From: Cyanidioschyzon merolae
Lineage: Eukaryota
Direction: 5' to 3' (one strand)
Length of the DNA: 64,000 bases
Assembly (NCBI GenBank): GCA_000091205.1
Contig: AP006502.2
The notes below the pieces were generated by a model. That model was not told where the DNA came from, made no database searches, and saw only the letters and a list, made by a program, of their open reading frames with translations. A program made the translations under genes and the position numbers. Below are positions 10,702 through 64,000 of the stretch, piece after piece (position 1 is the first letter of the stretch; each line of letters starts with the position of its first letter).

Positions 10702-11804
10702 TTTGGTCAGCGACCCTGCATGAGAGTCACACTGCTGCGAAGGGTGTTCTTTTTTGGACGAATATTTCCTCTGTTCTGTGGGTTCGGATGCGACGAGCGA
10801 GCTAATCAAGCACGCGATCGACGTACCGCATGCGAACAAAATGAACTGTTTCTTCATCGGGATGTAGTATACCGGAGAGCGCAAGTTTCTGTATTGGTGG
10901 TATCCTTCATACCGATGAGAGCATCGCCACCAGGGCGCCATTTGGGGCATCTGGATGATGCAAGGCTTCCAGGGTCGTTCCGAATTGCACGTGACTTTCC
11001 CATGGACTTGATGTCCGGAGCACGGTTTTAGCGCAATGTCCTGCACACGCTGGCAGCTGAGCTTCAACGTATCGATCCGGTATTGCAAGCAGGCCCAGTC
11101 GCAGAAAGCACGCCAAGGCTGGAACCGCTGCGCATGGAGCTATTCGCACCCTCTAACCGCTTCCCTCCAGGTATGATGCAGCCATTGGTACGAGGTCTTT
11201 CCAGGAACATTTCGCAGAAAGGCCCGGTCAACCGCATCACACGTGCCGGCCGCTCAGACGCGCGCGGGTACCTTCGCAGGCAATTTTGTCCCAGTTTGCA
11301 AGTCGCCAGCACAAGTGACCCCAAAGACAGCAGCTTCCCTATACTCGCTGTCACAGTGGCTTCTCCATGGTAAAACCCGTGGTTTGGCACGCAAGTTCCT
11401 CGGTAGCAGAGCATCTCAGTCTTTGAAAGCGGGTCTATCGCCGCGTTTGCAGTACGATCGCAACCACAAGAGCATCCAACGCAACACGCAAAAATCAGAA
11501 CGCTCGAAGCGATCCCACAACTCGAGCACGCACCTGCAGCTGCACCATGCCGAATCTGGACAGTGCTCGCATACCTGCACGCACAGAGCTGATACTGCAA
11601 TCCCGCCTTAAATTGACCCTATCTAACCGTTCGAGCTGAACCGAGTATGAGCTGTCCATAGGGAGCACGCATGCCGACACGTGTACGTCCTGGGCAGCAG
11701 CACAGATTTTTTCATTGACAAAACATTTACTTTGGCCAGCGTTCTCCGATTATGCGCATTTTTCTTTTATTTCTTCATGTTTTTTTTTCAGTGCGCGGTG
11801 AAGT

Positions 11805-11975
11805 ATCCATCAAACACCCTGCCTCCAAGTTATATGACCCATACTTCTTCTCGGATATTCTGGTCGTTTCATACGTCCTATCGTGTGTGCCTAGTGCCTG
11901 CCGAAGGCGACAGAACGGCTTTTCTGTACCACACAGAGGGCGTCGGCTCAAGGGGCAGCACCGATGCATGCGCGC
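11805..11975. repeat. dispersed ~200-bp repeat, copy 2 (about a 40-bp deletion relative to copy 1), ~150 bp upstream of the CCT-alpha ATG
   Basis: The shared blocks here read …cccatacttcttctcggatattctggtcgtttcatacgtcctatcgtg… and …gacagaacggcttttctgtaccacacagagggcgtcggctcaaggggcagcacc…. It is in the same orientation as copy 1. Confidence 0.7.
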
Positions 11976-22814: not shown

Positions 22815-24130
22815 TCAGATGAGAAAGGAACGCTGAACTGCTCGAATAGTTCCTTCATTGCGATTGGTAACGCAGCTCCTATTAGGTTTACAGCCACGAG
22901 ATTCGAGGAATAGCTGTAAGGACATACGGATTCGTACTTAGGTTAAGGATTCTCGTTGGTTTCTCCGAGGTCGCTCATTCCAATCTATCCGTTGGAATTC
23001 GTTTCGTCACCGGAATCAAGGTGATTCGCGATGCCCACGAACAAGACTCCCTACAATAATGTGTTTTTTACTAAATTTGTACGTTGAAGCCTCCGCTCCT
23101 CTCAGCTCCTTTCGGATAGAACGCTCAGATGACGCATTTTTCAAGTGTTTGATCGTTCTGTTCAGCGGCAACTCGTAGGCACAGCCATGCGCACCACCGG
23201 AATGATGATGAAAGAAATCGATGTCGTTTCTTCTCGACTTGTTCACGAGTTCATGTTGAAAGTTCACTGAAAACGTCATCTCAAATCATCCATTCCGCTC
23301 AGAAGAGAAATCCTCCTCTGTGTCAATCGCCGAAACTACTTGCGACAGCTCAATGATAACTCGCACAAGATACGCCGAAAGCGGATTCCGCCTCCTCTCT
23401 TTGCACGGGAAAGCATTCCGGAGACGTACATTAGTCATCGCAGCGATTGCTTCTGGAGTAGTGAGCGTGATCACCTTGTATGAAGGGCGCGTAAACGGAT
23501 CGACCGTTCTCGACTCGACCTCTAGCCGGCATTTTTCTTACCATTCTTGTTCTATCGTGGATAACATTTCGTTCCACAAATCCTCTATCGAATTGGACGG
23601 CGTGCGCTTGCTCGTGCATCGGTCAGAACACTCGATGCAGAGAGCCCTGGAGAAGCCCGAGATCGTCACAGATCGACAATGAGTGCGAAAAATAAACAAA
23701 ACACACTGAGAGAAGCTCTGTACACCCCGCCGGCGCTTCTATCAAGCGATGGGGCAAGCGTTGACGGGCTCTCACGTGGCCCTCCACAGATGACGTCTAT
23801 TGGGCAAATAGGAACACCTGCGCAAAATCAAGGAGCGTGGGTGCGAAACGCGCATCGAGACTTGATATAAAAGTAAAAAACGTTGCAAGCGAAGCCCAGA
23901 TTGCAGCTTTTGGCAGTGCATCGAATGCGTCGACACCAGCCGAAAGCAGCAAAATCGGGCCCTGAACGCGACTTTCAAAATCCTTCAACTGCGAACATCG
24001 GGAATAGAGTGAAACTAGAGACCAGCGTATACACAGACGGATATGAGAGAGCGGAAACGGAAGTAGTTGAGGAAAAACGCTCCGGAAAGCCACTCTTCAT
24101 GACCTTGGAAACAGACCCAACATTTTGAGT

Positions 24131-24660
24131 CTACATCCGAGGTCGGTGCGCGGATCGACCCATGCCTCGCTCCGCTTCCATTTCATTCATCGATTCTGCG
24201 ATTACGACGATAGCGTGTATGTCGATAAACCGACCTGCAGACGCTTCGCAACCTGTTTTGACCGGTTGCATGGTATCGATTTCAGCTTCTCCTCGTAGAC
24301 TTCGACCCGGAGAGGCTGCCCCATGAAGTTTGCTCGCGCCATCTCCGCAGGTGTCGTCCTCTGCTCCGTAAAACGTCTGATATTTATTGCAGCATTGACG
24401 TCTCGATTCACGAACTCCATGCGTTTTTTTGCATCTGGTCGAACTCACCTATGCAAGGATAGCGGAAACTCGCGCCACCTGTCTCGTCTTCGTCCTGATG
24501 ACGACGTACTTTTCTCACCTATGTTTGCTCTTCTTCTTAGATCCATGGTCGGCGAGAAGAGGATTATTTCCGTTACTTCTTCCAGCCGACGACACCGAGC
24601 CTCCAGACTCCTCTACCTAGATGTCCATCACTTTCCTGTTTTAATTCCAAAACGAACCCA
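24131..24660 (-). mobile_element. 5'-truncated fragment A of a Fanzor/TnpB-like (RuvC-fold, OMEGA-family) transposon-encoded nuclease gene. It keeps RuvC-III and the C-terminal tail.
   Basis: The minus-strand ORF 24202..24420 encodes KKRMEFVNRDVNAAINIRRFTEQ…NFMGQPLRVEVYEEKL. The nucleotide block tgatatttattgcagcattgacgtctcgattcacgaa (24377-24413) aligns with the copies at 34781-34817 and 60888-60924. Upstream homology runs to about 24650, then is lost. Confidence 0.6.
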
Positions 24661-26394
24661 CGTGGAGCGCTTCTGTTATAAACCGCTAAAAAGCACTTGA
24701 ATACGCTCACATGTGGGTTGAAACACAAACGAACGTAAAATCTATCATTTGCTCTGACTTCAACGCAAAAACATCGTGTACGTTCGAGCAGTACGCTAAT
24801 GAACAGGATCGTGTTTCCCCGCGACGGCGAGATGCACGTCCTCTCTCATGCCTGCCAGATATGGAGGTGCGCGTATCGAGTGCGCTATATAGAAAAAAGA
24901 ACAGAAACGAACCAGTAATTAGCACGAAATATCGATTTCTTTCCTCCTCAGAGCCAAGCGTTAAACGGGGAAAATTGTCCATGTTGCCAAGAGTTTATCT
25001 TATAGGCGGCAAGTCCCGCGACCTGGACGCTTCTGTCGGGCCGGTGATTCATGCTCCCACCAGTGGCGGGTGCAGTGGCGAGATCTGCGCAGCTCGTCCG
25101 CAACGCCGTTTATTCGGGGATTAGGGGCAGATCGGCAGCGTCTGCGCATCGCCCTGGTCGCTGTGGACTCCTAGTATGTCGTTTCGGGTTACTGCAGACA
25201 GTAGGTCTGTCTGCGAAGCTGACAGGCTCCCAGCATGAGGATGGACGCCAACTCCACGTCAGGTGAAGCATTCCGCGATCCGACACCCTCAGTGGTGAGG
25301 CGAAGCCGTTCCATCCCCGTGTGATGCATCCGCATCAGCGGTTGAGACGTTGCGGCGGGTGCCTCACACAGGTACTCGGCGCACGATAGAACGTACCATA
25401 CGACCAGTGCATCCGAAAGGAAGCATCCATGATGGAACATGGAGCTAGAGTGAAGAGCATTGAGCGTTATCATTTATTTCCATGCATATCCCGCGACCTG
25501 GGATCTCCATCGTCGACGCATGCGTTTTTCCAACGGAACATCGATTCGCAGCATCTATGTGGACTTTGCTATCCATAAATCAACAACTATGGGCAGCATC
25601 GAGAGCCGCCCCCGTGGACGCGCAGCGGTGCGTCAGCGTCGTCGTCACCGAAATCAGCGGAGGATCCAGCGCGGCTCCGCCCAGATACATCCCCCGAAAC
25701 CTGCCAGGGACGCGTCGATCCTGAGCACCAGTGCCTCTTCAGGGCGCGTTGCTATCTGGTAGACGTCGGTGCCAGTTCGCACGAGCCTTCTGGAAGCACG
25801 CTTATCCGTACACCGAATATACGGGAAGCCGGTGGCGGATGTATACGCGCTTCTTCCTGTGTGGCAACAGGCTTCACTGACACACGGGCGCTGTGTGGAA
25901 CGAGGATCAACAGCGGCGGCGGCAGGGTGTGTGACTAGCGCACCGCTGCCAGCAGCAGCTTTTCCTGCAGCCGCTCGGCAGTGGGGTCCTAATTGGGGTA
26001 TCGCTAAGCAGCGCTTTCCAGGAATCTCTGAATCGACGATCATATTTCTGTCGCTCCCGAACGTTCGCGAAGCAACCCGAGCACGTAGCGGCCGCAACGA
26101 GCGCAGAAGCGCAAGCGGCAGCTTTTTGACAGATTTCGGGACCTCTGCGTCGGTTGTGCGCCGTACATAGGTCGTCATTAAGTATTACGTGTGACAGAAA
26201 AGTCAACTTTAGAGGTGAAAAACCTCCAAACGACACAGACACACACAGACAGACGTCGAAGCACTGTTAAGACTGGTGTCTTCACTTGGCGGACTGGGCT
26301 CCCGAGTGAAACATCGGGTAACAGCCAATTTTTCACGGACACAAGTGCACGACACTCTTAACCGCTGCGACTTGGACCAGTGTTGCGACCGTAA

Positions 26395-33729: not shown

Positions 33730-34579
33730 CCGAGGGAGGCAGCGCTCAGCGCACAGCAGGTGCGTTTGCATACTGCGATCAGGGCCGCGATGTCTATAAC
33801 TGCACTACTGGCGCTTGCTCCGTTTGCGATCAGTGTATCCGAATCGCACTGGTATACCTGTGTATTGAGAGGCTCGACGGTCATCGTAGCGTATCACGAG
33901 CACATATGCTACTCGTCGAAAGCTGCAAACTCGTGATTTATGCGTCGTGCGCGTGTATCCTTCGCTACTGGCATGAGGCTCGTCTTCAAGCGCTGACGCT
34001 AGGGCTTTTGACGCATTCAGCGTTCTGGAGATACCGCCTGATAGCGTGCGTGCCGCTGGCAACGTAGTCCCTGTTGCCACCCGTAGGCGGTTGGGTTCCT
34101 CGAACTCGCTCAGGCATCCGAGCTGGCGATCATTGTCGATTGTTACCGACGCTACGCATGGGAAAAGCCGACCAAAGGCTGGTGCCAAGAACCAAATCGT
34201 TGCGAACGGGGAGTGCTATTCGCCCAGACAGCATCACAATCGGAAGCACCAGCAACACCGGCACCTGAAGGCATTTCGTGTTCCAGGAAAGCCATCTGGG
34301 TGCGTGTTTGTTCGAGTTCCTGGCCAGCAGCTTTGCTTTATCGGTTTTCCGGGCAGCCGCAAGCCTACCAAAATACGGGTTGAGCTCGCTCTGGGGCGAT
34401 CCGCTACGCTGCAGCCTTGCGAGCTGCAGGAATCCGTTTGAAGACGCAAGCGCTACCAGCCACAGACGGAGGAAGCGGTGTGAAGCGCTGCACGTGCACC
34501 GCTCCTAACGCCCAGGAGCACAAGGCCGTGGAACAAGCCTTCCGTCCTGTCCCTGCAGTACGAGCGAGCGTTCGGCAAT

Positions 34580-35012
34580 ACACGTCAACAGAAGGATAAA
34601 TGTTTCAAAACCATGACGAGTAAATCTATATACCCATGCGCTGACGCCTCCCGGAACTTTTTGACCAGCCGCCTGCTATCGGTCTCAGTTTCTCCTTGGA
34701 CACTTCGAGACTTCGAGGCTGTCCGAGAACGTTCACCTGCGTCAGCTCCGCGGGTCTTTTCATGAGCTCGGCACATCGTCTGATATTGATGGCGGCATTA
34801 AGGTCTCGGTTCGAAAAGCCCATGCGCCTATCGCCTCTGCTTGAAGTCACCCAGGCAGGGATTCCCAGAACTCGTGCCCGCCGTTCCATTTGATGCTCTG
34901 TCAGCGCTCCCTGCTTTTCTATCGCCGAAACGCTTCGCTGCCTTTTCTCCATATCGACCTTCTGAAATCTACATCTCAGCTCATCCCTTAATTTCTCTTA
35001 AATGAACGCACT
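34580..35012 (-). mobile_element. 5'-truncated fragment B of the same Fanzor/TnpB-like element family (RuvC-III plus tail)
   Basis: The minus ORF 34626..34952 encodes DELRCRFQKVDMEKRQRS…LTEHQMERRARVLG…RMGFSNRDLNAAINIRRCAEL…NVLGQPRSLEVSKEKL. This is colinear with copy C (HELGCTLQRVEMEKCQRS…LTEERMERRAKFRG…RMEFRNRDFNAAINIR). The nucleotide block 34781-34817 matches A and C. Homology ends at an in-frame TAA near 35010. Confidence 0.6.
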
Positions 35013-36333
35013 TGTTCTTTAGATACCCAAGTGGGAACCTTCCCTGATCGACACGGATATGCAGAAGAGGGGCGAGGTGTGCCCCGGTGTGTCAACGTTT
35101 GCTGAACGCTTCAGCGATTCGTCCAGAAGAGCGATGATTACGTTTCGCAATAGAAGACACTCCTTCGAAGCGGTTCATCCGTGGACAGTGCGGAGTAATG
35201 GAAAGCAGCTCTATTTCGACCGAATCGGGAAAAGCGAAAACTCAAGCGGAACGGTGAAGTGCCACGTTGGTCAATGGAAGGACGTCTACAGATTTCACGG
35301 GAAAAGTCTTCAATGATTCGATCAAGTGGTTGGTTCTGTTGTATGTGCCTGCTGCATGAGCGGAACTGAGGCCGCCGAATGCATCCACCGCAGCTAGAAC
35401 AGACGATCATGGCCTCGTTCTCTTCGAGTTCGATCCTACATACAACAGGTTCGTTCTCCGCCAATGCCGATATACGCCCCGACCGCTTCATCCGGAGGAA
35501 CTCTCATCGACTGGAAAAACAAACCGACTGGCCTGTGCTTTATGCCGATAGCGGGTTCCAGGAATTCTGCTGTTGCGATTTCGTTCTAAGTTGGTCGTGC
35601 GTAAACTAGGACTTTTTTGCGACTGTATCCCGATGTTTTCAGGACCACACGAATTAGCTGGTGACAAACAGAGACGCCCTTGGCGGCGACGATCTTCGGT
35701 TTTGCCTTCCGCAAAAGGGGATCAACGGGTTGTTTTTGAAGCATCGACCGCAAGCAGTCTCTGAAAATATCGGTTTCTGGCGCGAAGCGCATCTATTGCT
35801 TTGTTTCAGTGTTCCTCAAACGTCTGCCTACTGCGGTATTTCTGAGCGCAATAAGGGATGCAGTCCTCGTTACACTGTTCAGTAAATATTATATCCTACA
35901 GACAACTCGTCTACAATCCATAAACTATATCGCATCGTGATTTCGATCCTCTGCTATCCATTGCGGCCGGCGGGTGCAACAAAATCGTCATGAAATACTG
36001 CAATGCTGAACGTGTCCGAGTACTGTCCTTATCAAGGCGGAATTGGACGCATCTCAGTCGGCTTTGTCGACGCTTGTTCACACTGATGACGAGCATACCT
36101 TTCGCTGCAGTGACGAGCGAGCGCAGCGCGTGCCCGCGGTGCTTGTCAACTGGGGCTCCGTGGCACGCGCTGACACCGGCATCGCTTTCATTGTCCACAT
36201 GCGACAAATCCTTCATCGCAACGATCTCATCGAGTCAAGGGATCGAATGTCTCCGTTTACCGTAACGCAGAACGTTGTCTCCAGATCCAGTACTGCTTTA
36301 CGGGGGCGTCGAATTCTAAGGCAAGCATCTCCC

Positions 36334-37812
36334 CTAGATGCGCTGCTGGGGTGCTGCGGCATGCTCCTGCAGCATATGCACGTCGAGGCGCTGCTGGACG
36401 GCATCGATAAACTCCTCTGTATTGAGGTAGTTTTCCCGTTTGCTGCCCTGTTCCGTCCCGTACACTGCAATCGAGAGGTCCTTTGTCATCTTACCATCCA
36501 GGATTGTCTCGATACAGGACCGCTCCAACGCCTCAGCGAAATGTGCAACATCCGGGGTTCCGTCGAGTGTCGCCCGATGGGCCAGGCCTCGTGCCCATGC
36601 CACAATACTAGCAACGGAATTGGTACTCGTTTCCTTTCCCTGCTGATGGAGTCGGAAATGTCGCGTCACTGTGCCGTGAGCCGCCTCCGCCAACAGCGTC
36701 TTGCCGTCCGGCGTAAGCAGGACGCTGCTCATGAGTCCCAACGAACCGTAGCCCTGTGCTATAATGTCAGACTGCACATCTCCATCATAATTCTTGCAAG
36801 CCCATAAAAACCCACCCGATGACTTTAACGCTTGAGCAACCATATCGTCAATGAGGCGGTGCTCATACCAGAGCGCGGCCCGAGTGAAGCGTTCCCGATA
36901 ATCCCTTTCGTACAGTTCCTGGAAAATGTCCCGCCAACGTCCATCGTACACTTTGAGAATCGTATTTTTCGTGCTCAAGTACATTGGCAGCTTCCTCCTT
37001 AACGCAAACTCGAAGCAAGAGCGGGCGAAGTTTCGAATGCTTTCGTCTGTATTGAACATGCCGAGAGCGACGCCGCCGCCGTCGGTGCTCGACGCGAACT
37101 GGTGCACCTGGCGACGCTCGAGCTCCATGCCTTGGGCATCCAAAACTCGCAGCTCAACGCGACATGCTGGCGGCACCCGCAAGTCCTGTGCTTTGTACTG
37201 GTCTCCGAAGCCGTGGCGAGCGATGACGATCGGTTGCTTCCAGCCTGGCACAAGGCGCGGAATATTCTCAACCAGGATCGGTTCGCGAAACACAGTACCG
37301 TTTAAGACGTTCCGCAAGGTACCGTTCGGCGACGGGTACATGCGCTTGAGATGAAACTCCTCGACACGTGCCTCGTCTGGTGTTATGGTAGCAGCCTTAA
37401 CCGCTGCGTGATGCTGTTGTACCGCTCGTGCTGCTTCCAGGGTAACGCCGTCGTCCGTAGCGTCTCGAACGGGTAAACCCAGGTCGAAATAAACGATGTC
37501 CAGATTGAGGTACGGAAGAATGAGTTTGTTCTTGATCAGGTGCCAGATGACACGCGCTTGTTCGTCTCCATCAAGCTCGACTATCGGATTTCGCACTCTG
37601 ATTTTGGAAAAAGCAGGTACGTTCGACATGTTTGCACAAAGGCTTCGTCCTGTTGTTCGCCTCAAAAACTTGGGAAAGCAGTGACCCCGTCTTCGATTAC
37701 AACAACAATTTCCCAAGGACCGGCACGGTGCAAAACCTGTTCGTTTCCACGAGCCCCCGTGGCTAAGAAAAGCACTCGAAAGCGCGCAGCAAGCCTTCCT
37801 GAGCACAAGCAT
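36334..37812 (-). CDS. IDH: NADP-dependent isocitrate dehydrogenase (eukaryotic IDH1/IDH2 type) with an Arg-rich presequence
   Basis: Near-colinear match to IDH1/2, including [41 protein letters not shown]…, …[12 protein letters not shown]…[19 protein letters not shown]… and …[14 protein letters not shown]…[17 protein letters not shown]…. The ORF is open to 38088 (GTG). In-frame ATGs lie at 37812 (presequence form) and 37629 (MSNVP, cytosolic-type start); both were verified as cat on the + strand. Confidence 0.9.
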
Positions 37813-37952
37813 CGATGATGGACGAGTGAGTCTGGCGGGTTCGAGAGATCGCTGCCGCGCCGGCTTGTGTTCGCTGGAGATCAAGCGCGCAGCAGGCTGC
37901 TGCTTATGGGGTGGTGGTATGGTTGAAACGGGGTTTCGGATAAGTGTGGCAG

Positions 37953-37972
37953 TGATGATGATGATGATGGTG
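37953..37972. repeat. (GAT)n microsatellite upstream of, or in the extended frame of, IDH
   Basis: The sequence gatgatgatgatgatggtgatgg is seen directly. It is translated as poly-I in the extended minus frame. Confidence 0.8.
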
Positions 37973-38993
37973 ATGGTATACCAGCTTTCATTGGACACTT
38001 GGCCAAAGCACCGGACTATGATGCAGCGACGGGATTCGCATGTATTTCGTAGCGTGCACTCAAGTGGAGAAATTTTGTTTTGTTGCACTGGATCGGAGAA
38101 GGGGTTTCAACGGCCTTGGTGATCTGATGAACCGATACGAGTCGGATCTCGGCTTGCGAACCTATCGGTGGATAGGCAGCTCACTGCACCGTGCTGCAGC
38201 ATACGAAAGGAGCGTGCTAGAGCGTCCAAAATCGGATGACGCTGAACCCATGTCAGACTGGAATAGAGCGGGTCGACACGAGCGACCTGGGCGTACACCA
38301 TAGATACTTGATTTCATTCGATTCTCATCAACACCAGCTTTTGCGAACCTTTTTCGTGCGACTGCTTCCTTTTTCTTTTTCATGTGGATTGCTCCAACTA
38401 CGCAGGTACTTTTCGTATCGAACGCTTGCTTGTCAGCATACGCAGCTTCGCGATGCAAGGACAAGTCCCGACTTGGCCGCTTCAGGCTCTAATTGACGTC
38501 CTCGAAGCAAAGACGGTCGTTGCGATCGATGTTTCGCTTGACAATTGCATTTTTATTTGTGTACAACCTGGGTGCAAGCTTCACAGCAGCGACACTTGGC
38601 AGTGCGCAGGCATTCTATACGTATATCGAGGCTTCTCACGCGCCGATGGCTGCCTCTTGGCACGGGCAGGCGTGCTTCATTGCTCGGAACATGACCTGGA
38701 CAGGTACAGAGGGCTCTTCTCAATGCCTTTTCACGTTTCCGTGGCTGGCCCTGAAACCCACAATCACCGGCGTGCTCTGGGCGATGCTCGCTGCGAGCAC
38801 GTCGCTCCATTCCATAAAGGATACATGGAACGCTAGCTTGTCCATGATGGAACATTTCATGGAAAGACAATACTGGTTCGCAAATGAGTTGAGAAACTTT
38901 GATCCGTCTACGTCCCTTCGTGCAAAACGGTGGACTACGCCCCACTGGAAGCGATCGCTGTAATCACTCTAGTCCCAGTGCATGAAGCTTGTA

Positions 38994-39053
38994 GTCTTTC
39001 GAGTCGGTGATATTCCACGCACCTGGGTCTGGAATATCACCGACTCGAAAGAC
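38994..39053. repeat. perfect 24-bp inverted repeat separated by a 12-nt spacer (60-bp hairpin-forming palindrome) in the IDH/RabGGT intergenic region
   Basis: Left arm gtctttcgagtcggtgatattcca, spacer cgcacctgggtc, right arm tggaatatcaccgactcgaaagac. The right arm is the exact reverse complement of the left (read directly). Confidence 0.8.
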
Positions 39054-39504
39054 GATAGTGCTGCGGGATCGATGACCGAAAACCCAGCCGCCCAAATGTG
39101 CAAACCTGGTCGATTATTCGAACATGAACCTCACTCTTCCACTGCGACTTGAAAGCTGCATACGTCCCAGGTCACCGGACGAGTGCAGAGGTCGCATACT
39201 GTCGTACCAGAGACGCAAACTCGACAAGCCCAGGCGCCCTGCACATGCACTGTGGAACGCAACATCGCCAGAGCTCCAAACGTCAAACTTTAGCCATTTG
39301 CGTTCCTTTTACTGCTCAAGTTCGACACCACGGGGAACTCGTCGCCTAATCGGCACTCTGTTAGCGTTCGTCTATTGCACGTGAACTTGCCCTAGCGCAA
39401 TAAACGGTCCCCGAGTGCGACCTTCGAAGCTCGGCTTGTGGGCAATGCGCTTGCTTGCTCCGATTGCACTGGAGTAGAGGCGGTACAACAGCTTCGTCGT
39501 GCCC

Positions 39505-40602
39505 ATGACATCACCAGCGCTGCCGCTGCAGCTCCCGCGCTCCGAGCACATCGCTTTTTTGGGCCAGTACGTAAACCGGGACGTCAGGGCTTTGCCATCT
39601 ACCTTTGAGCTTTGGGTCACGGAGCATAAGAAACTCTCTGCCGCCTACTGGACGGTCGTTGCACTAGCGCTGCTGGACGCCCTGGATCTGGTGCCACGCG
39701 AGCGTTTGCGAGACTGGGTGCTGGAGTGTCGAGACCCGTGTGGCGGGTTTGGCGGCGACGTTGGACAGGACCCGCATCTGCTCTATACGTTATCAGCGGT
39801 CCAGATCCTTTTCTTACTGGGAGAAGAGGCGCGCCTGGACCGGTCATCCATCATAGCATATGTGGCAAGCCTTCAGCAACCTGACGGATCTTTCGCAGGC
39901 GATACCTGGGGCGAGATCGACACCCGCTTCTGCTTCTGTGCGGCGCTTACGCTCGCCATACTTGGTGTTCCATTGCAACAACGCGAGCATTCTCGGAATT
40001 CTCCAGAAAAGACGAACGAAATCGAACGTCCCATTCGCACCGATGCCCTAGTAGACTACATCATGCGATGCGAAAACGATGACGGAGGCTTTGGTGTTAT
40101 CCCCGGCGCAGAATCCCATGCTGGTCAGGTTTTCTGCTGTGTCGGCACGCTGGCGTTGTGTGGAGCTCTCTATCGGCTTCGAGACGGCGGCAATAGGCTG
40201 GCTCGTTGGCTCGCGTATCGCCAACTTCGAAACGGAGGTTTCAATGGTCGTCCCGATAAGTTACCGGACGTTTGCTACAGCTGGTGGGTACTGGCCTCGC
40301 TTAAAATCATCGCAAAGGACCATTGGATCTCTGCTGACGCTCTTGAGCGTTTCATCTTCTCCTGTCATGCGCAGAGAGAGAGTCAGAACACATACGCTGG
40401 CGGCATTGCAGACCGACCAGGTGACGAGCCGGATGTCTTCCATACCTTTTTTGGCCTGGCTGGTCTGTCGCTGCTCGAGAGGCAGCAGCTGATCGCCATT
40501 GATCCTGTCTACGCTCTTCCGTGTGCGCTTGTGAAACGCATTCATGCCGCCAACCCCAAAGCGGAACTCGTGGACACAACCGAAGGGGTGTCACAAGTTT
40601 GA
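39505..40602 (+). CDS. RABGGTB: Rab geranylgeranyltransferase (type II) beta subunit
   Basis: Prenyltransferase alpha-alpha toroid repeats are present, with GGFGG, DGSFAG, DGGFG, NGGFNGR and YSWWVLASL. The start was moved to the ATG at 39505; the listed 39499 is GTG. Confidence 0.85.
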   Translation: MTSPALPLQLPRSEHIAFLGQYVNRDVRALPSTFELWVTEHKKLSAAYWTVVALALLDALDLVPRERLRDWVLECRDPCGGFGGDVGQDPHLLYTLSAVQILFLLGEEARLDRSSIIAYVASLQQPDGSFAGDTWGEIDTRFCFCAALTLAILGVPLQQREHSRNSPEKTNEIERPIRTDALVDYIMRCENDDGGFGVIPGAESHAGQVFCCVGTLALCGALYRLRDGGNRLARWLAYRQLRNGGFNGRPDKLPDVCYSWWVLASLKIIAKDHWISADALERFIFSCHAQRESQNTYAGGIADRPGDEPDVFHTFFGLAGLSLLERQQLIAIDPVYALPCALVKRIHAANPKAELVDTTEGVSQV

Positions 40603-45727: not shown

Positions 45728-46421
45728 AGTCGCTGGACGCAGCCCTGTGGAGACGGTCACACATGCGAGCACCGATAGCTGGCTGAGCGCTTCAGGAATA
45801 AGGAAATGTCCTGACGCTTCTCAACTGGATGCTGGTGGATAATGTTGTCGTGCTCACTGAGCTGCATCGCGTGCTCGAACGAAACACACGGGTTGCAATG
45901 CGCAGACGAACCGAAAGTTCTCGGCTATAGAATGCGTAATGAAGCGCGCTGCGGCAGGCACTTTGTTTCTCGGTGCAGTGAACACGGGTGAACCAGCTGT
46001 GAATCAACGGCCGTGTCCACGACAACACTCGTTGCACATTTGCTGCTCGCAACAAGCGCGAGCAGCTCGAATTGCGCATCAGCATGCCACTGCATCTTGA
46101 ACGATTACCGGAACTGAGGCCGTGGTACATTGCCGTGCTGCATTGTTCTGGCCCAAAACGTACCCGTGCAGGGGTGAACCTCACAGACAGCCTGTTGGAA
46201 CGCGCTGTGGACACGGAGATCTCGATGCTCGATGCTGCTTGCGGTACAAGGAATTGTACCCAAATGCTCTTTCCCCTCAGTTGGTCTCATCGAATAGACC
46301 GATAACGGTCTCTACGCAGAGAAATGCATCATCCTTGGAGCGGTATGGCCTGCTGCATTGCCGAGTAGGCGATTTCGAGCGAGCGAGGCCATCGCGACCC
46401 TGCTGGCAGTGCACACGAAAA

Positions 46422-46745
46422 GCGCTCACTTTCACCAACAGACAGGTAGGTAGCTTGAAAGGCAAGGAGGTCGCACTGCAGCAACCATTCCCCCTGATTG
46501 CCTGATTGATATCGCTTTGCGAGCCGGCAGCGCTCACTTTCACCAACAGACAGGTAGGTAGCTTGAAAGGCAAGGAGGTCGCACTGCAGCAACCATGCCC
46601 CCTGATTGCCTGATTGATATCGCCTTGCGAGCCGGCAGCGCTCACTTTCACCAACAGACAGGTAGGTAGCTTGAAAGGCAAGGAGGTCGCGCTGCAGCAA
46701 CCATGCCCCCTGATTGCCTGAACGATATCGCCTCGTTAACCCGCT
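46422..46745. repeat. 108-bp tandem minisatellite, 3 full copies (units start at 46422, 46530 and 46638), with a degenerate partial copy near 46800
   Basis: The unit is gcgctcactttcaccaacagacaggtaggtagcttgaaaggcaaggaggtcgc(a/g)ctgcagcaaccat(t/g)ccccctgattgcctga(t/a)(t/c)gatatcgc(t/c)t(t/c)gcgagccggca, with more than 95% identity between units. The spurious minus-strand ORFs here show the identical 36-aa repeats expected from 108 = 36 x 3. Confidence 0.85.
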
Positions 46746-48389: not shown

Positions 48390-48773
48390 GTAAGTTTATA
48401 CAGTTACTGACGTAGCGGAAAGCGCCTCGCGTTGCTTCTCCTGGATGCACGGGCGCTTTCATAGAGCTCGACTCCATTCAGTCAGTCAGTCAGTCAGTCA
48501 GTCTGACTGACTGTCTGTCTGTCAGTTTGTGTGCATGTGTTTGTATGCACATGACCAGCACCCATCGTTGACGTTCTTTGGCGAACACTGGCGTCATCTG
48601 GTGATATGCGAAGCCACAAGGCGACGCAAGCGATACGAGCGCCCGTACCGCCGTCGACGCCATGCAGCGGGTGCCGGTGACCACACGGGTATAGCGTTGC
48701 CGGCTGACTCGGGCCCAAGACTACCACACGCTTATCGAACCGAACAGAGCACTAACCGATTCTCATCAACCAG
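48390..48773 (+). other. spliceosomal intron of BRE1 (384 nt, GT…AG, phase 0) containing a palindromic (CAGT)6/(ACTG)n microsatellite
   Basis: The donor is gcg|gtaagtttat. The intron has an in-frame stop. A pyrimidine tract …ccgattctcatcaaccag| precedes the acceptor at 48772-48773. The downstream exon continues in frame (DVQSASEDASEYLAEIETL…). The microsatellite cagtcagtcagtcagtcagtcagtctgactgactg lies at about 48478-48515. Confidence 0.65.
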
Positions 48774-57514: not shown

Positions 57515-60508
57515 CTAGGCAGGCCGCGAAGCAGACCCCCTGACATGATCATCAGCATCATCAGCATTGCTCGCGGGGAGGAATTTCAACAGCCACGCGA
57601 GGCACTGGATCCAAGCGTCATCGAAACTGGGCGAATCCTCAATCGCATGATTGCTGCGTGGATAGAAGAGTACCCGGAGCGCTTCAGCCTGGGTACGAAT
57701 CGCACGTGCCCATTGAAAACCCTGCGAACACGGGACGCGTTGGTCTTGTCCACCGATCTGCAACAGGGTCGCTGCTCGAACTCGATCCGCATGCGATATG
57801 GGTGAACACAAACGCATACGTTCCAGCTCGGCGAGTTGCGGCACTCGATGAATGTTGCCTGGCGTACTCGACGCAGATGCATCTCCAATGCCGTCGTTGC
57901 TGTCGGACGTCGAGCGCTCGACGCCTCTTTCGAGCCCTATCTCGATGCCGCATTCGTGATAGCACCAGTCTGCAATATCCGTCTGCGACACCATTGTGGC
58001 AATATCGACGACAGGATTACGCAGGACAACCGCACGCACGACTGAAGGGCGCACGGCGCTGAGGTGCGCCCCCAGGAAACCCCCATGACTCCCGCCGACA
58101 ACACCGACGCGCCTGCGATCAATAGCGCTCCACTGGGGGTACCAGCGTCCCGAACTTGTGCCGCTGCCGTCGTTTTCGTTGTCAGAGCGACCCCCGTCGC
58201 CTAGTGGCTGGTGCTCGCCTCGGAACCAGCGCCAAAAATCAGCGTTCTCCAGTGCGCATTCCATGGACAATACACATTCTTGAACGTCTTGCTCGCCAAT
58301 CTTACCGAGCAGGGAGCGAAGTCGAGCCTCGCCCTGTCCCAGTGAACCGCGGTAGTTCGGCAGCAACAGCACGCAACCCAGTCGAGCGAGTACCGCCACA
58401 CCCGGATTCCACACGTTTGCCAGGTAGCACGCGTGCGGGCCACCGTGCAGCACCAGTACCAGCGGTACACGGCCGTGCGCATCAAGCAGCGCGCCCCGGT
58501 TCGGTGCCACCACGATCGCCTCGAATCGATCCGGGGGATTCGTCGACACAGACGAGAGCCAGCCGCCCGCTGACAGCGCCAACGACGCGATACCAATGCG
58601 GTAGGCCTGGTTTGCAGCCCCGTAACCCAGCGTGACGGTGCCGAGACTTGCTTCGGTGTTGCACCATTGCATCCGGTGACACTGGTCGCTGGGTGCAAAG
58701 CACCACTCGCTCACGCACTGAACCGTGCGAGTAGTCCCCGAGTCCGCAGCATCCTCCTTGATCAGCCGGGCGGCGAGCTCAATCGTCGGCGCCGTCAACA
58801 ACGTCATGCTGGTACCGACCACGATGTCCAGAGCCAGACGCTGCGGATGTGGCTGCGGCTGCGCTTCCCCATCCGTAGGAGGCTCCGGTAGCCAGCTGCG
58901 CTTCACTGCCAGCACCTGATCCATGCGCTGGTAGCACGCGTGCTCAGACTCACCGATGAACGCGAGCGCTCCAGTGCGGCGATCGAGCAGGACAGGTCGC
59001 GCTCGGCTGCCGACGACTGCGTTCAACACAATCCATTCGGAGCCAAAGCATCCGTCTGCGCCCTCAAGCAGCACCCGAGCTGGATTTAACGGATAAAACC
59101 CGCCGGGCCATTCGCCAAAACGAGGCCACGTTTCCCCGTTCGGAGCCAGAAAGCGACGACATGGACCAAGGCGAAGCGTGCGTTTCGGTTCATCGATGAG
59201 CAGCAGCGGCGCCTCTATGATCCAGTGCGCAGTGCAATGCGGTGCATCGCAGGGTGCCTCCGCCCACACCAGCAGCGCATCGCTGTGCAATCGTGGACAC
59301 GTTCGACTGTAGTACCAGGGCGCGTCTGCATCGGCACCAATGACCACCTGTACATGAGCGACGAGCGCAGATCCGTCTGCATCAGATTCACTTTCCTCGA
59401 TTGGACGACGTTCCAGCAGAGCAACAACGATCACGCTCGGACGATTGGTACAGTACACGTGTCCGCGCGGCACATCCGTGCGCCGTTGCCGCGCGATCCA
59501 GACGAGCACATCGCCGCGGCACTGCGGATCCGCGGCATCGGCATCGGCGATCGCGGGCGCAGCCCCGGTGATCCGCAGCGCACGCACGCGCCATGTCGCC
59601 GGTTGATCGGCAGCTGCGTGCAGCAGCGCTTCGAGCGTGTACAGGCGCGGGGCGCGCTTGCCGACAAACTGCTCTCCGTAGTCGTCGATATGTCGGAACG
59701 CCGAATAGCTGGGCCACGGCGTGTTCTGCTCTGGGCTGGTTTTTGTTGTCAGGGAATTAATGTGTGGTTGATCTGAGAGCGCTGGGTTCGGATGCGTTGG
59801 TTGCAATTGCTCCGCCACGTAGAAGAAGGCCATTTGTGTTGCGCTGTATGCACAGCCTCCGAATAGCGCATCGCTGTAGACGTCGCCATGAACCCTGTCG
59901 GTCGGGATGCAGCGTACCAGGTGTGGTGCGCTCGGGTTTCCGTTCGCGAGCTGCTGGCGCTGCCAAACTTCTATACGTGCTGCATGCGGCGAGGATTTTG
60001 ATGTGTTGGCGGACGTGTCCTTATCCTTGTCGCGAAAAAAGAGCAGTCGGTACGCCACCTCATCTGAGTCAAATTTGAGTACGTGTTGCGTCTCCTGCGC
60101 GGCAGCCGCTGGTGGCGTTATTCGCTCGATCTGGAGGAGAGGCATAGCGGCGTTTCGTTTCGAGCCGCTGACGGGTATGGAAGGTGGCTGGTTTGCCCTG
60201 ATCAGGAACTGTTCCCAGTGCGTGTATCGGTACTGGTGTCCGATGCGCGGCTCTCTTTGCTGCCGTTCTATTTCAACTGTGACCAGCAGACACGGCGTCT
60301 GTGGGCTCTTTGGAGGCGCTTGAAGCGCTGCATCGCGGGGCTGGCTAGCCGTATCCGCTGTCTCCAACGAGGGTGGCGGTGCGCGCGTCCAGAACCAGGA
60401 CGTCGACAGCGCTGCCGACACTGGCGTCGAAGTTTCTCGAGTAAAGTTCTCGAAAATCTTCGCAGCGAGTTCCTCTTCTTCCAGAGTGTTAGGGTCCTCG
60501 CCAGCCAT
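57515..60508 (-). CDS. S9-family serine peptidase (acylaminoacyl-peptidase / prolyl oligopeptidase-like) with long N-terminal beta-propeller region
   Basis: The C-terminal alpha/beta-hydrolase catalytic domain has VLVLHGGPHA, the nucleophile GGSHGGFLG, and downstream Asp/His. The ORF is open to 60673 (TTG); the first in-frame ATG (MAGEDPNTLEEEE) is at 60508 and was verified. Confidence 0.8.
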   Translation of the reverse strand: MAGEDPNTLEEEELAAKIFENFTRETSTPVSAALSTSWFWTRAPPPSLETADTASQPRDAALQAPPKSPQTPCLLVTVEIERQQREPRIGHQYRYTHWEQFLIRANQPPSIPVSGSKRNAAMPLLQIERITPPAAAAQETQHVLKFDSDEVAYRLLFFRDKDKDTSANTSKSSPHAARIEVWQRQQLANGNPSAPHLVRCIPTDRVHGDVYSDALFGGCAYSATQMAFFYVAEQLQPTHPNPALSDQPHINSLTTKTSPEQNTPWPSYSAFRHIDDYGEQFVGKRAPRLYTLEALLHAAADQPATWRVRALRITGAAPAIADADAADPQCRGDVLVWIARQRRTDVPRGHVYCTNRPSVIVVALLERRPIEESESDADGSALVAHVQVVIGADADAPWYYSRTCPRLHSDALLVWAEAPCDAPHCTAHWIIEAPLLLIDEPKRTLRLGPCRRFLAPNGETWPRFGEWPGGFYPLNPARVLLEGADGCFGSEWIVLNAVVGSRARPVLLDRRTGALAFIGESEHACYQRMDQVLAVKRSWLPEPPTDGEAQPQPHPQRLALDIVVGTSMTLLTAPTIELAARLIKEDAADSGTTRTVQCVSEWCFAPSDQCHRMQWCNTEASLGTVTLGYGAANQAYRIGIASLALSAGGWLSSVSTNPPDRFEAIVVAPNRGALLDAHGRVPLVLVLHGGPHACYLANVWNPGVAVLARLGCVLLLPNYRGSLGQGEARLRSLLGKIGEQDVQECVLSMECALENADFWRWFRGEHQPLGDGGRSDNENDGSGTSSGRWYPQWSAIDRRRVGVVGGSHGGFLGAHLSAVRPSVVRAVVLRNPVVDIATMVSQTDIADWCYHECGIEIGLERGVERSTSDSNDGIGDASASSTPGNIHRVPQLAELERMRLCSPISHADRVRAATLLQIGGQDQRVPCSQGFQWARAIRTQAEALRVLFYPRSNHAIEDSPSFDDAWIQCLAWLLKFLPASNADDADDHVRGSASRPA

Positions 60509-60739
60509 TTTCGCTGCAGACAGCGGAATCCAGTTGCACAGGTCGCTCACGAGCAGAGGGACCCTGTTCGTGAGGAATGGCGCGCCCAAGTGCCGGCGCC
60601 CGAGCAGACGCTGACGAGGCGGTGATCCCAGCGGCTTTGCCAGCTGGCACCAGCAACAAGAAACGCCTTTCAAAAGAAAAACGTTGTCGTCGGTGGTGTA
60701 CAGTAGTGGCGACCAGCGCCCTAGACAAGAAGTCTCTAA

Positions 60740-62900
60740 CTAACGTGCAGACGCCTCCCTCTCTTTTTGGACCGGCCACCTACTGCTACTTCCAATTTTT
60801 TCTCATATGATTCAACCTTAAGAGGTTGGCCCACAAAATTCTCTATTGTCACCTCCGGAGGTCTCTGATCCATCACCGCGCATCACCTAATGTTGATTGC
60901 GGCGTTAAAATCTCGGTTTCGAAACTCCATCCGTTTCTTTCCATTGATTGTACTTACTAATGCAAGCAGTCCTCGAAATTTTGCTCTCCTTTCCATTCGC
61001 TCTTCTGTCAGCGGTCCGTACTTTGCTCTGTTCTCAGGGCTCCTCTGGCACTTTTCCATCTCCACTCTCTGAAGTGTACACCCCAGCTCATGGTAGGTAT
61101 ACAACGTTCGAAACTCATCTACAGGTATCGTAGCGAAACGCCGTGCACACTCCTTGTACGCTCTCGTCGTTGGAGCTGGCGTGGTCGCTTTCTTGGGCGC
61201 CTAGCGCCCTGCTCCGTATGCCACTACGAGCCTCTGACTTTCATTCTACTCGAGGGCGCTCAACTGGCTGAAAAAGATCGCGAATGCATGCTGCTTCCCA
61301 CAGTATAGATGCATTCGCAGAGGAGCCCACCGGGACTTTGTATACTCTTTCCGCAGCGCCTCCCAATATGCAACACGAACTTTCATGAATTTCCGAAAAG
61401 CTTCAAATTCCGCTCCTCGGCTAGTCACCTCGCTCAAAAATTCCAGGTGCTCTTTCAATCCTGCATTCCACGTCTCAATTTTCTTCCTTGCGTTTATCAT
61501 ACCGGATTCTCGATAGTATCTCGCTCTCGAGAATCTCAACAGACGCATGTCCTTCTGACGTAAGTTGCCGTCGTTACCATCTTCCCCACGCTTCGGTGCT
61601 GTGATGGTGATGATATTTGTGTGGCCGGGGTCCGCGCCAACGATAAAATCGTTCTCATGCACTTTCTGCATCGCAGGATTCGCCTCCTTCTCATCTTCAT
61701 GCTTCGTCACGGCCGCAGCCGAAGGCGGAACTGGACGATCTGCCTGCAACCGCCGATAGTGAACACACTTGGATACTTCATTAGTTTCGATCACCCCCAG
61801 TAAATACCTTTTGTTTGCTGATTTTGAGACGTTTGAAATCGAAGATATTCCCCCAGTACGTCTCCCGGTTTTCGCCGGAGAATTCCCCCCTGCTAACACT
61901 GAACTCGGGACTGATCTCCTTCATGATGCCAGGAAGGACGCCGGAGTCGATAGTCACGAAATGTGACTTGATATTGCACAACGAAACCACGTTGAAGCGC
62001 TTCCCCATTAGGACAGCCTTCCGTCTCTCCCACTCTTCATTTGTCTCTTCACTCAACTTCATTTCCGCCTTGCGTTCGAGCTCTCGGTCCAGAAACACGA
62101 AATAGCGCAGGACGAGGCAATAGTATCTTTCCTTCTCTTTTTTCAACGCTAATATCTTGTCTGTTGGATTTGCCAGCCCCAGTACGGCACGGTGCTCTCG
62201 TATAACCGCACGGATTAGAGAAGCTTCATTCGTGCTCCTGCGTGATGTCTTCTCTCCGACGAATTCGATCTGATCTTCATGCTTGCGATCGTTCGTGATG
62301 CCATTGATAATCGCCCATTTTCCATTGCGAGAGATGCTCGGGTAGAGCGCAAACACGGCGCGTATCATGAAACGTTCGAGGTTTACGATCAGATGGTTCT
62401 TAGGGTTCGCGGGGTACTTTTTTTACACCGTATTCGTAAATGCGCCAGTCACTCCTGTATCGAGCACAGCTGAAGGGTATTCAACCTAACTTTCGTGGAG
62501 GCGTGCACGAGGTCATTCCTCCTTGACGTTTCCCCTGTGTCAAACATCAGGTGACGAATAGAGGTCCTGGTGAAAAATTCTTCCCGATCTTCGACTCTTT
62601 TGAGGTCTGTTACGTCTTCGTACAGCTCTTTCTCCAAATGCATCAGTCCTGAGGAAGCGTTACAGACGCTGCTGGAGTACGTCTCGATACGGTTTCTGAT
62701 GGCCTCTTGCAACTTTAGCTCGTACGCCTCTTTGGTATGCTGAGAATGTCTCCTGGGCTTATGCTTCACGCTCTCCCCAGTGGCAGGTGCTTTAGAAAGA
62801 TCTGGGCAGCAACACGTCCGCAACGCAATTCATTCTGCGACTAGGGGCAGTTAACCCGCGTCCGGGCGTCGCTCTAGTCGCAGTGGACTTCTATAACAAC
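60740..62900 (-). mobile_element. near-full-length but pseudogenized Fanzor/TnpB-like (OMEGA-family, RuvC-fold RNA-guided nuclease homologue) gene of a eukaryotic transposon. It spans about 690 codons across at least 3 reading frames and carries 3 in-frame stops in the C-terminal half.
   Basis: RuvC-I is ENDFIVGADPGHTNIITI (ORF 61246..61899). The conserved block RAYKECARRFATIPVDEFRTLYTYHELGC matches the TnpB Y-K-x-x-x-G…V-D-x-x-Y-T-S-x-x-C zinc-finger region. RuvC-III is RMEFRNRDFNAAINIR at 60886-60930, followed by a TGA stop and then a still-conserved tail (ENFVGQPLKVESYEKKL). In-frame TAG stops lie between the blocks (…SALE*NESQRLVVAYGAGR*APKK…). The upstream ORFs 61781..62368 and 62449..62823 are in other frames. 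Confidence 0.65.
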
Positions 62901-64000
62901 GCTTCGCGTTGTTGTGGGCAGTAATTCTATCAGCACAATTTGCTAGTTCCTGGAATGATTATGCGCCCGACCCCTTCTCAGATGAAGCATTCCTCGTTCC
63001 GACGCCCTCATTGACACAGTAAAAGCCGTTCTGTCTCCGTGATGCATCTGCACCAGCGGTATAACTGCTACTGCGGGTGCAGCCAGGCAAGCACTCGGCA
63101 CACGAGAGAATACACGAAACAACCAGTACATCCGAAAGAAAGCATAACTAATGGAACCTGGAGGTACGTTGCAGCATGACGGATGATTTTTCCATTCCGA
63201 ATGCCCATCCATGCCGCAATCCGGCATCCACGGTCGATGGAAACGTTCTGTCATCGGAAAACAAAACTCAGCTACAGCGTGTCGGGTACCGGGCATCCCC
63301 GTACGGCCAGCAGCGGGGCTTCCGACGCTGCAGGGGGCGCGATCGTCGTCGCGTTCCCGCGAATCCCCGATGAAAGGCGCGAGGCCACCTCAGCCGCCAA
63401 TTGACATCCAGCGGATGATGCGCGACGGCGGCACTAGGGGATCGTTTCTTGAACATTTTCAAGCCACTGGGCGCCAGCGACGGGAACGCTAGGCGAAGCA
63501 CTCGTAGGCGCTTGTTGAATCGGTGCGTCTTGGGTGAACGGCGCATACTTGCAGGTAATCGGACTGCACAGAGAGCGCAAGACGCTTGGACTCGAGCAGC
63601 AGCATCGAGGCACGTTTCTCCAGCTGTGTCGAAGAACGGGGTTCGACGGGGCGTTTGAGGCTCACTGCTGCACGCCCACTATTTTATTTGATTGCGCTGT
63701 TTCCATAAAAGTTGCTTTTGGCACAGCGTTGGGTGTCGGCGAGCACCAGAAGAGGGCTTTCGTCGAGATAGAAGCGGGGCTATTAGCGAGCTCGTGAAGT
63801 TTGCGCGTTCAGTTCGCGACGCGGGCGACGTTGCCTCGCCATGGTGTCCAACCTTCTACCTGTGCCTGCTCCGAGCCAGGCACACGCACCATCGATGCAT
63901 CTTACTTTAATGGAGCGGTTCTGGCGCGTTTGCTTTCTCGTTCGATGTTTCTTCAACAGCGTAAGAGAGCGAGGATTATACACCACATCGCGGGTACGGC

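Follow-up and report, generated by a model that had tools for sequence, protein, structure and literature searches.

The stretch of Cyanidioschyzon merolae DNA analyzed here (64,000 nucleotides of contig AP006502.2, referred to below as the window) carries a perfect inverted repeat in the spacer between the genes for IDH and RabGGTB. The question raised by this locus is how an exact palindrome of such length came to be there, and whether it serves the cell. The hairpin probably represents an inverted duplication, young and present in one copy, that was produced by one replication or repair event and is now neutral; we infer the template-switch mechanism and the neutrality themselves. There is probably no dedicated function of the hairpin.

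Genomic setting of the hairpin

The inverted repeat and the genes that surround it are arranged as follows.

37812, minus strand: ATG of IDH (BAM83205.1), named 'cytosolic' in the C. merolae 10D annotation
37813-39504 (1,692 bp), no strand: non-coding spacer from the IDH start codon to the RabGGTB start codon
38994-39017, no strand: left arm of the inverted repeat (24 nt), GTCTTTCGAGTCGGTGATATTCCA, 24/24 complementary to 39030-39053
39018-39029, no strand: loop (12-nt spacer) between the arms, CGCACCTGGGTC
39030-39053, no strand: right arm of the inverted repeat (24 nt), TGGAATATCACCGACTCGAAAGAC, complement of the left arm
39505-40602, plus strand: RabGGTB (BAM83206.1 / XP_005539242.1), protein identical to the C. 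merolae 10D entry
next gene after RabGGTB: Bem46 (BAM83207.1)

The chromosome of C. merolae 10D that carries RabGGTB is 1.62 Mb in length. The accessions BAM83205.1 and BAM83206.1 are consecutive, which means that the annotation has no gene between the two loci. The preliminary description correctly placed IDH on the minus strand and the start of RabGGTB at 39505 on the plus strand. However, it took the two genes to be convergent, and they are in fact divergent, arranged head to head with IDH reading from 37812 on the minus strand. The spacer that holds the hairpin is thus upstream of both genes and is not flanked by their 3' ends; the distance from the hairpin to the start codon is 452 nt on the RabGGTB side and 1,182 nt on the IDH side.

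Several other features of the region were recorded. The IDH start in the reference annotation gives the protein a 61-residue N-terminal extension (MLVLRKACC..., 37630-37812, minus strand) that is outside the Pfam domain, and all metagenome gene callers place the start at 37629 instead (431 aa). The spacer also contains an ATG/ATC-rich simple tract at 37949-37975, upstream of the annotated IDH start by 140-160 nt, whose length varies by 1-2 nt between wild contigs. A 108-bp tandem repeat at 46421-46733 is present in different copy numbers in strain 10D and in wild metagenome contigs; the wild contigs align to the window with differing offsets of about 108 bp.

The inverted repeat is exact and not due to chance

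An exact 24/24 palindrome with a 12-nt loop had been reported at 38994-39053. Re-examination of the arms, a check that the preliminary description itself had named, found them to be reverse complements at all 24 pairs, and the sequence and coordinates were as given there. The accompanying claim that the palindrome is very unlikely by chance in 64 kb is borne out by the analytic expectation for a stem of at least 24 bp, which is 6e-9 per 64-kb window and 1.5e-6 per 16.5-Mb genome. The perfect inverted repeats of the window were counted exhaustively with loops of 3-20 nt. This hairpin is the sole long one and every other perfect stem has 11 bp or fewer. The next longest, three cases of 11 bp, are all in a CAGT microsatellite, and the longest stem in Markov-simulated sequence (30 simulations) was 9-12 bp. 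The microsatellite, at 48479-48521, consists of (CAGT)n adjoining (CTGA/CTGT)n and is an imperfect palindrome; it is the window's only other source of 11-bp perfect stems.

Folding was predicted for both nucleic acids. In a 120-nt context, the predicted RNA fold was -56.9 kcal/mol on the plus strand (z = -7.4) and -52.9 kcal/mol on the minus strand (z = -5.9), while the 60-mer as DNA gave a predicted -26.6 kcal/mol (z = -11.3). These energies are extreme for RNA and DNA alike, consistent with the proposal that the sequence could form a stable RNA hairpin or a DNA cruciform.

Wild relatives of the window were sampled by exact-protein look-ups, which returned 31 loci corresponding to 25 non-redundant contigs, C. 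merolae-like and about 99.5% identical to 10D. Logan assemblies were also searched for transcripts, and every contig retrieved is genomic. The hairpin is not a sequencing or assembly artefact, since it was found in 23 independently assembled metagenome contigs.

Copy number, foreign matches and known RNA families

Apart from the hairpin itself, the arm does not recur in the 64-kb window, even with up to 3 mismatches allowed. An arm 20-mer searched against the JGI metagenome collection, which includes 34-kb and 128-kb contigs of C. merolae, matched this locus only, in three contigs that each contain both arms. A 23-mer had 0 matches among 185,579 prokaryotic genomes. Beyond the window these scans cover exact 20-23-mers in partial collections, and diverged copies elsewhere in the 16.5-Mb genome would escape them. 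The existence of many copies, which would have identified the sequence as an ordinary MITE family, had been named as grounds for setting the hairpin aside; no multi-copy family is present in the window or in the collections scanned.

The possibility of a foreign, viral origin was considered and rejected. Two IMG/VR contigs (L026:3637-3658 and L027:3268-3289) have in common a 22-mer, AGGAATATCACCGACTCGAAAA, and 20 nt of it belong to the hairpin arm. These matches were judged to be coincidence because each is a single occurrence in unrelated coding sequence (EYHRLEK), with no inverted partner and no similarity in the flanks. The prokaryote scan was empty. An insert derived from an organelle is also unlikely, the arm 20-mer having no other contig match in metagenomes that contain this alga.

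When Rfam was searched at a permissive E-value, mir-36 scored 28.2 and 27.2 bits on the two strands versus a gathering score of 48, and mir-344 scored 19.2 bits versus 52.5. The mir-36 matches are taken as a generic hairpin signal because they are below threshold and occur on both strands. A tRNA or permuted tRNA was considered and no tRNA was found, and a search of the literature on hairpins or palindromes in C. merolae returned nothing specific.

The open reading frames of the spacer do not behave like genes

It was considered that the hairpin may be a 3' UTR element of an unannotated gene, since an ORF of 144/156 residues ends 30 nt upstream, but this ORF lacks gene-like behaviour. Its codon-usage score is 0.124 versus 0.165-0.244 in six confirmed genes, and resembles that of the antisense frames of those genes. 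Its SNPs comprise 7 nonsynonymous and 2 synonymous changes versus 19 and 31 in confirmed genes (Fisher p = 0.035), and SNP density is at the level of the spacer. The ORF is not annotated, and no homologues were found outside the same locus. A 56-residue ORF that spans the hairpin has lost its ATG in 5 wild contigs (38983 T>A), and an antisense ORF of 130 residues in the spacer has a nonsense allele among the wild contigs. With an excess of nonsynonymous changes, a nonsense variant or the loss of a start codon, the ORFs within the spacer do not behave like genes.

Variation of the hairpin in wild populations

The hairpin was kept in 23/23 wild contigs that cover the whole of it. The sole polymorphism of the arms is 39015 C>G in the left arm, present in 5 of these 23 contigs. 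The substitution breaks a C-G pair at stem position 22 of 24, beside the loop, at a cost of about 3-4 kcal/mol, and is uncompensated. In the loop a single position varies (39028 T>C, seen in 3 wild contigs). The right arm (39030-39053) has no polymorphism in the 23 contigs, nor in an additional contig (L024) that contains the right arm only. The number of segregating sites per 100 bp was compared between classes of sequence.

confirmed genes: 0.62
other spacers: 0.73-1.57
IDH-RabGGTB spacer: 2.08
hairpin: 3.3 (2 sites in 60 bp)

The spacer mean is 1.26 segregating sites per 60 bp versus 2 in the hairpin. Since 41% of the 60-bp windows of the spacer also hold at least 2 sites, the hairpin is not depleted of variation. 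Neither a compensatory change nor a deficit of variation was seen in the stem among the wild contigs, a test of low power with 2 sites. Neutrality predicts about 1 arm SNP and 1 was seen. Because the power is low and a mismatch near the loop is cheap, a weakly selected structure would look alike. The operator-like and pause-site roles that had been proposed for the palindrome are neither supported nor contradicted, but the population data reveal no constraint on the stem.

Four sites distinguish 10D from every wild contig. The perfect allele is common to 10D and the commonest wild haplotypes, so by parsimony the perfect stem is ancestral and 39015 C>G is derived. The stem is already decaying, as indicated by this derived, uncompensated mismatch in five contigs.

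The densest cluster of segregating sites in the spacer is at 38963-39028, where 6 sites fall in 66 bp versus a mean of 1.4, a density equalled by 0.06% of windows. The cluster covers the end of an adjacent repeat fragment, described below, together with the left arm and the loop. It is possible that the palindrome is mutagenic for the adjoining sites. A template-switch origin of the flanking cluster itself was examined and rejected, as the variants have no reverse-complement source longer than 7 nt. In the flanks, the variant 38969 C>A falls on a predicted flank pair, and the right flank (39054-39136) has no variants.

Two wild contigs have ends at the hairpin or near it. The Logan contig L024 (SRR29605747) begins at 39029, inside the loop, and the JGI contig L025 begins at 39090, 37 nt past the hairpin. 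The ends of these two independent assemblies suggest that the palindrome causes breaks in coverage or assembly and is awkward for polymerases; they fit this explanation and are not proof of it.

Comparison with relatives

The nearest other lineages, by identity of the RabGGTB protein, are Cyanidiococcus yangmingshanensis (72%) and GCA_041825655.1 (74%), and there are no database relatives between 74% and 99% identity. The divergent IDH/RabGGTB pair is kept in Cyanidiococcus, with a spacer of 817 bp that is not alignable to that of C. merolae. Orthologous spacers were therefore rejected as outgroups in spite of the retained synteny. No comparable inverted repeat is present in the 817-bp spacer of Cyanidiococcus or in the upstream region of GCA_041825655.1. 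Because the corresponding regions of the relatives have no such structure, the hairpin is specific to the C. merolae lineage.

The adjacent repeat fragment

The sequence adjoining the hairpin derives from a dispersed repeat; this fragment is old and diverged and is one of several such pieces in the window.

225-488: dispersed repeat piece
11665-11975: dispersed repeat piece
23427-25675: dispersed repeat piece
34403-35030: dispersed repeat piece
38241-38975, minus strand: dispersed repeat piece, designated piece A, an inverted copy of 23427-24200
60493-61132: dispersed repeat piece
62749-63384: dispersed repeat piece

The pieces are about 70% identical and are located in intergenic spacers, separate from one another and differently oriented, on both sides of IDH. 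The fullest copy is at about 23.4-25.7 kb. The repeat may be the 253-copy, roughly 3.2-kb interspersed element of Nozaki et al. 2007 (PMC1955436). By nhmmer, piece A aligns to 23427-24200 with reversed orientation (E = 1.7e-33 to 8.3e-34), with 70% identity over aligned pairs and a Jukes-Cantor distance of 0.39.

The possibility was considered that the hairpin is a by-product or terminus of this neighbouring fragment, either a palindrome formed at its junction by FoSTeS/MMBIR template switches or a hairpin-capped break, or the terminal hairpin of the element. The position of the hairpin suggests such a connection. Detectable homology of piece A to its sister copy stops at 38974-38990, the left arm begins 4-20 nt further on at 38994, and the homology does not resume past the hairpin. 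The extra length of the C. merolae spacer (about 1.7-1.9 kb versus 0.8 kb in Cyanidiococcus) approximates to the fragment plus the hairpin, and the densest SNP cluster of the spacer is at this junction. However, the ages do not agree. The perfect arms indicate less than about 6% divergence since their origin (95% bound), and with arm divergence below about 0.06 versus a Jukes-Cantor distance of 0.39 between the repeat copies, the hairpin is several-fold younger than piece A. It therefore was not made when the fragment arrived, unless the arms have been continually homogenized. Moreover, the sister copy at 23427-24200 lacks a hairpin and anything comparable to either arm at the equivalent end, in a comparison of two copies whose true terminus is undefined, and the arm word is single-copy. 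The fragment is thus unlikely to be the source of the hairpin. The sister copy was also tried as a paralogous outgroup and rejected: its homology ends before the hairpin and the arms align to the sister terminus at shuffle level (Smith-Waterman).

Probable origin by template switching

A mechanism that acts in one event is needed, since a 24/24 stem is not attainable base by base, given an expectation of 6e-9 per window and a next-longest stem of 11 bp. Template switching is reported by Löytynoja and Goldman (2017, PMC5453318) to give perfect reverse-complement repeats in one replication event. In the present case, a polymerase would have copied about 24 nt of adjoining sequence as its reverse complement, by template switching or fold-back priming, leaving a 12-nt spacer. 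The event would have taken place in the fast-evolving, non-coding IDH/RabGGTB spacer, beside the end of a much older repeat fragment, and before strain 10D and the sampled wild populations separated. Neutral drift and the onset of decay would have followed. This reading, the most economical one, is not among the candidate roles of the preliminary description.

The observations that support this reading are that the hairpin is single-copy, has no target-site duplication, is lineage-specific and young, shows no constraint and has an arm SNP that is uncompensated. The arms are adjacent exact reverse complements, too long for chance when the null maximum is 9-12 bp, and they are locally unique and outside repeat families in the exact 20-23-mer scans of partial collections. 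Furthermore, there is no alternative carrier, whether an Rfam family, a tRNA, a constrained ORF or an annotated gene, and the RNAi machinery is reported absent. Other observations count against it. Among database relatives nothing falls between strains at about 99.5% DNA identity and lineages at 72-74% protein identity, so that a one-armed ancestor, the diagnostic sign of a template switch, is unobservable. Additionally, the position at the boundary of a repeat fragment, for which a rough estimate of chance occurrence is 2-4%, and beside the SNP peak would not be predicted by a purely random event.

A single template switch is documented to yield a perfect stem of some tens of bases (PMC8794818; PMC10710096). 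Like the hairpins of template-switch mutations (Mönttinen & Löytynoja 2022, PMC8794818; Mönttinen et al. 2023, PMC10710096), the C. merolae hairpin has a perfect stem of tens of bases with a short spacer, and is single-copy, lineage-specific and non-coding. It was perfect at birth and acquired mismatches later, as described for young hairpins. In those studies the event is shown by an outgroup that has the source arm alone, whereas no outgroup can be aligned here and membership in the class is assigned by exclusion. Recruitment as a miRNA gene, the fate stressed in those studies, is closed in C. merolae, where the miRNA pathway is absent.

The hairpin also resembles the quasipalindromes and cruciform-forming palindromes of yeast and bacteria (PMC7999016; PMC3855049) in being a short, closely spaced perfect inverted repeat, with a local excess of SNPs beside it (6 in 66 bp) and a contig, L024, that breaks inside it. 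However, arms of 24 bp and a 12-nt spacer are far under the sizes of ~100 bp or more that are tied to strong fragility, and no rearrangement or deletion allele of the hairpin was found among the 23 wild contigs.

Functional readings of the hairpin

None of the functional readings has positive evidence. The first is a DNA cis-element. Divergent transcription creates negative supercoiling (twin-domain model), which between these two genes might extrude a cruciform to absorb supercoils, bind protein or form a boundary between the promoters. Such a role would be consistent with the location of the hairpin in the shared upstream region of a head-to-head pair, with the very stable DNA hairpin that is predicted (z = -11) and with its retention in all the covering wild contigs. 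However, retention among strains that are 99.5% identical is expected without selection, and there is neither a polymorphism deficit relative to the spacer nor compensation of the arm SNP in 5/23 contigs. Cyanidiococcus, with the same conserved gene pair, has no equivalent structure, and 24-nt arms far exceed the site of any dimeric transcription factor. A cruciform element is thus quite unlikely.

Alternatively, the stem may act in RNA, where it would serve as a signal for stability, termination or processing by RNase III (Rnt1-type). The transcript could be a non-coding RNA (upstream or antisense), an extended 5' leader of RabGGTB, or the product of transcription running on from the repeat fragment. 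The RNA structure predicted on both strands is very strong. Nozaki et al. 2007 (PMC1955436) report the 253-copy interspersed elements to be transcriptionally active, and the repeat fragment next to the hairpin may be one of them. However, no Rfam family scores above threshold, there is no covariation or compensation, and the sole arm SNP breaks a pair. Pairing of the flanks is not conserved, as indicated by 38969 C>A on a predicted flank pair and by the invariant right flank (39054-39136), and the relatives have no conserved counterpart. Nor is the 144/156-residue ORF located 30 nt upstream a constrained gene to which the stem might belong (7 versus 2 SNPs, p = 0.035, no homologues). We regard a functional RNA hairpin as improbable.

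It would be more far-reaching if the hairpin were a functional structure-forming element, kept across geographically separate populations in the bidirectional promoter region of an RNAi-less, transposon-poor eukaryote. It might be a cruciform that buffers or insulates supercoiling, or else a hairpin RNA that is processed by an RNase III other than Dicer. In either case template switching at the border of a repeat fragment would have generated it, and exaptation would be just starting. This scenario is a long shot.

Small-RNA and transposon readings

The preliminary description also listed a miRNA-like or small hairpin RNA precursor and a MITE remnant as candidates, and the evidence is against both. 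A stem of 24 bp with a 12-nt loop is superficially like the short pre-miRNAs, and the mir-36 matches of 28.2 and 27.2 bits point in the same direction. Pre-miRNA hairpins, of which mir-36 is the best Rfam match although below threshold, are likewise simple stem-loops of about 60-100 nt. Unlike them, the C. merolae hairpin is under the gathering score of 48 on both strands and has a stem that is perfect and short. Moreover, DCL1 and AGO1 are reported to have been lost in all Cyanidiophyceae (Cho et al. 2023, PMC9812998), so a miRNA-like role would be without its machinery in a lineage that has no Dicer or Argonaute.

In principle the arms could be what is left of an element that collapsed down to its terminal inverted repeats. 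As in MITE or TIR remnants, an intergenic region holds a closely spaced pair of inverted arms, and their 24 nt is typical of TIRs. However, the arm has no second copy in any collection searched, and the arm ends have no target-site duplication: the left arm is preceded by GAAGCTTGTA and the right arm is followed by GATAGTGCTG, and these flanks share no direct repeat of 2-10 nt where they meet the arms. The genome of C. merolae is nearly transposon-free, with a reported content of about 0.7% transposable elements and no MITEs (PMC1955436). The terminal hairpin of a Helitron, which is found ~10-12 nt upstream of a CTRR 3' end inserted before T in a multi-copy element, was also rejected; the sequence is single-copy and neither strand has CTRR followed by T at the right distance. 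A small-RNA precursor or a solo-TIR or MITE remnant has close to negligible probability.

Significance

The favoured reading is a neutral inverted duplication made by template switching, and the biology is likely to be ordinary: one more perfect short hairpin of a known type, scattered by replication template switching in a compact, transposon-poor, RNAi-less alga. Its value is that of a clean natural specimen, single-copy in an organism whose genome is 100% complete and in which homologous recombination is tractable. The wild variants show the first step of decay, and the locus could serve to measure the decay rate or the mutagenicity of a palindrome at 42-50 °C and low pH. If there are many such hairpins genome-wide, especially at the ends of the 253-copy element, they would provide new insight into the spread of that enigmatic element.
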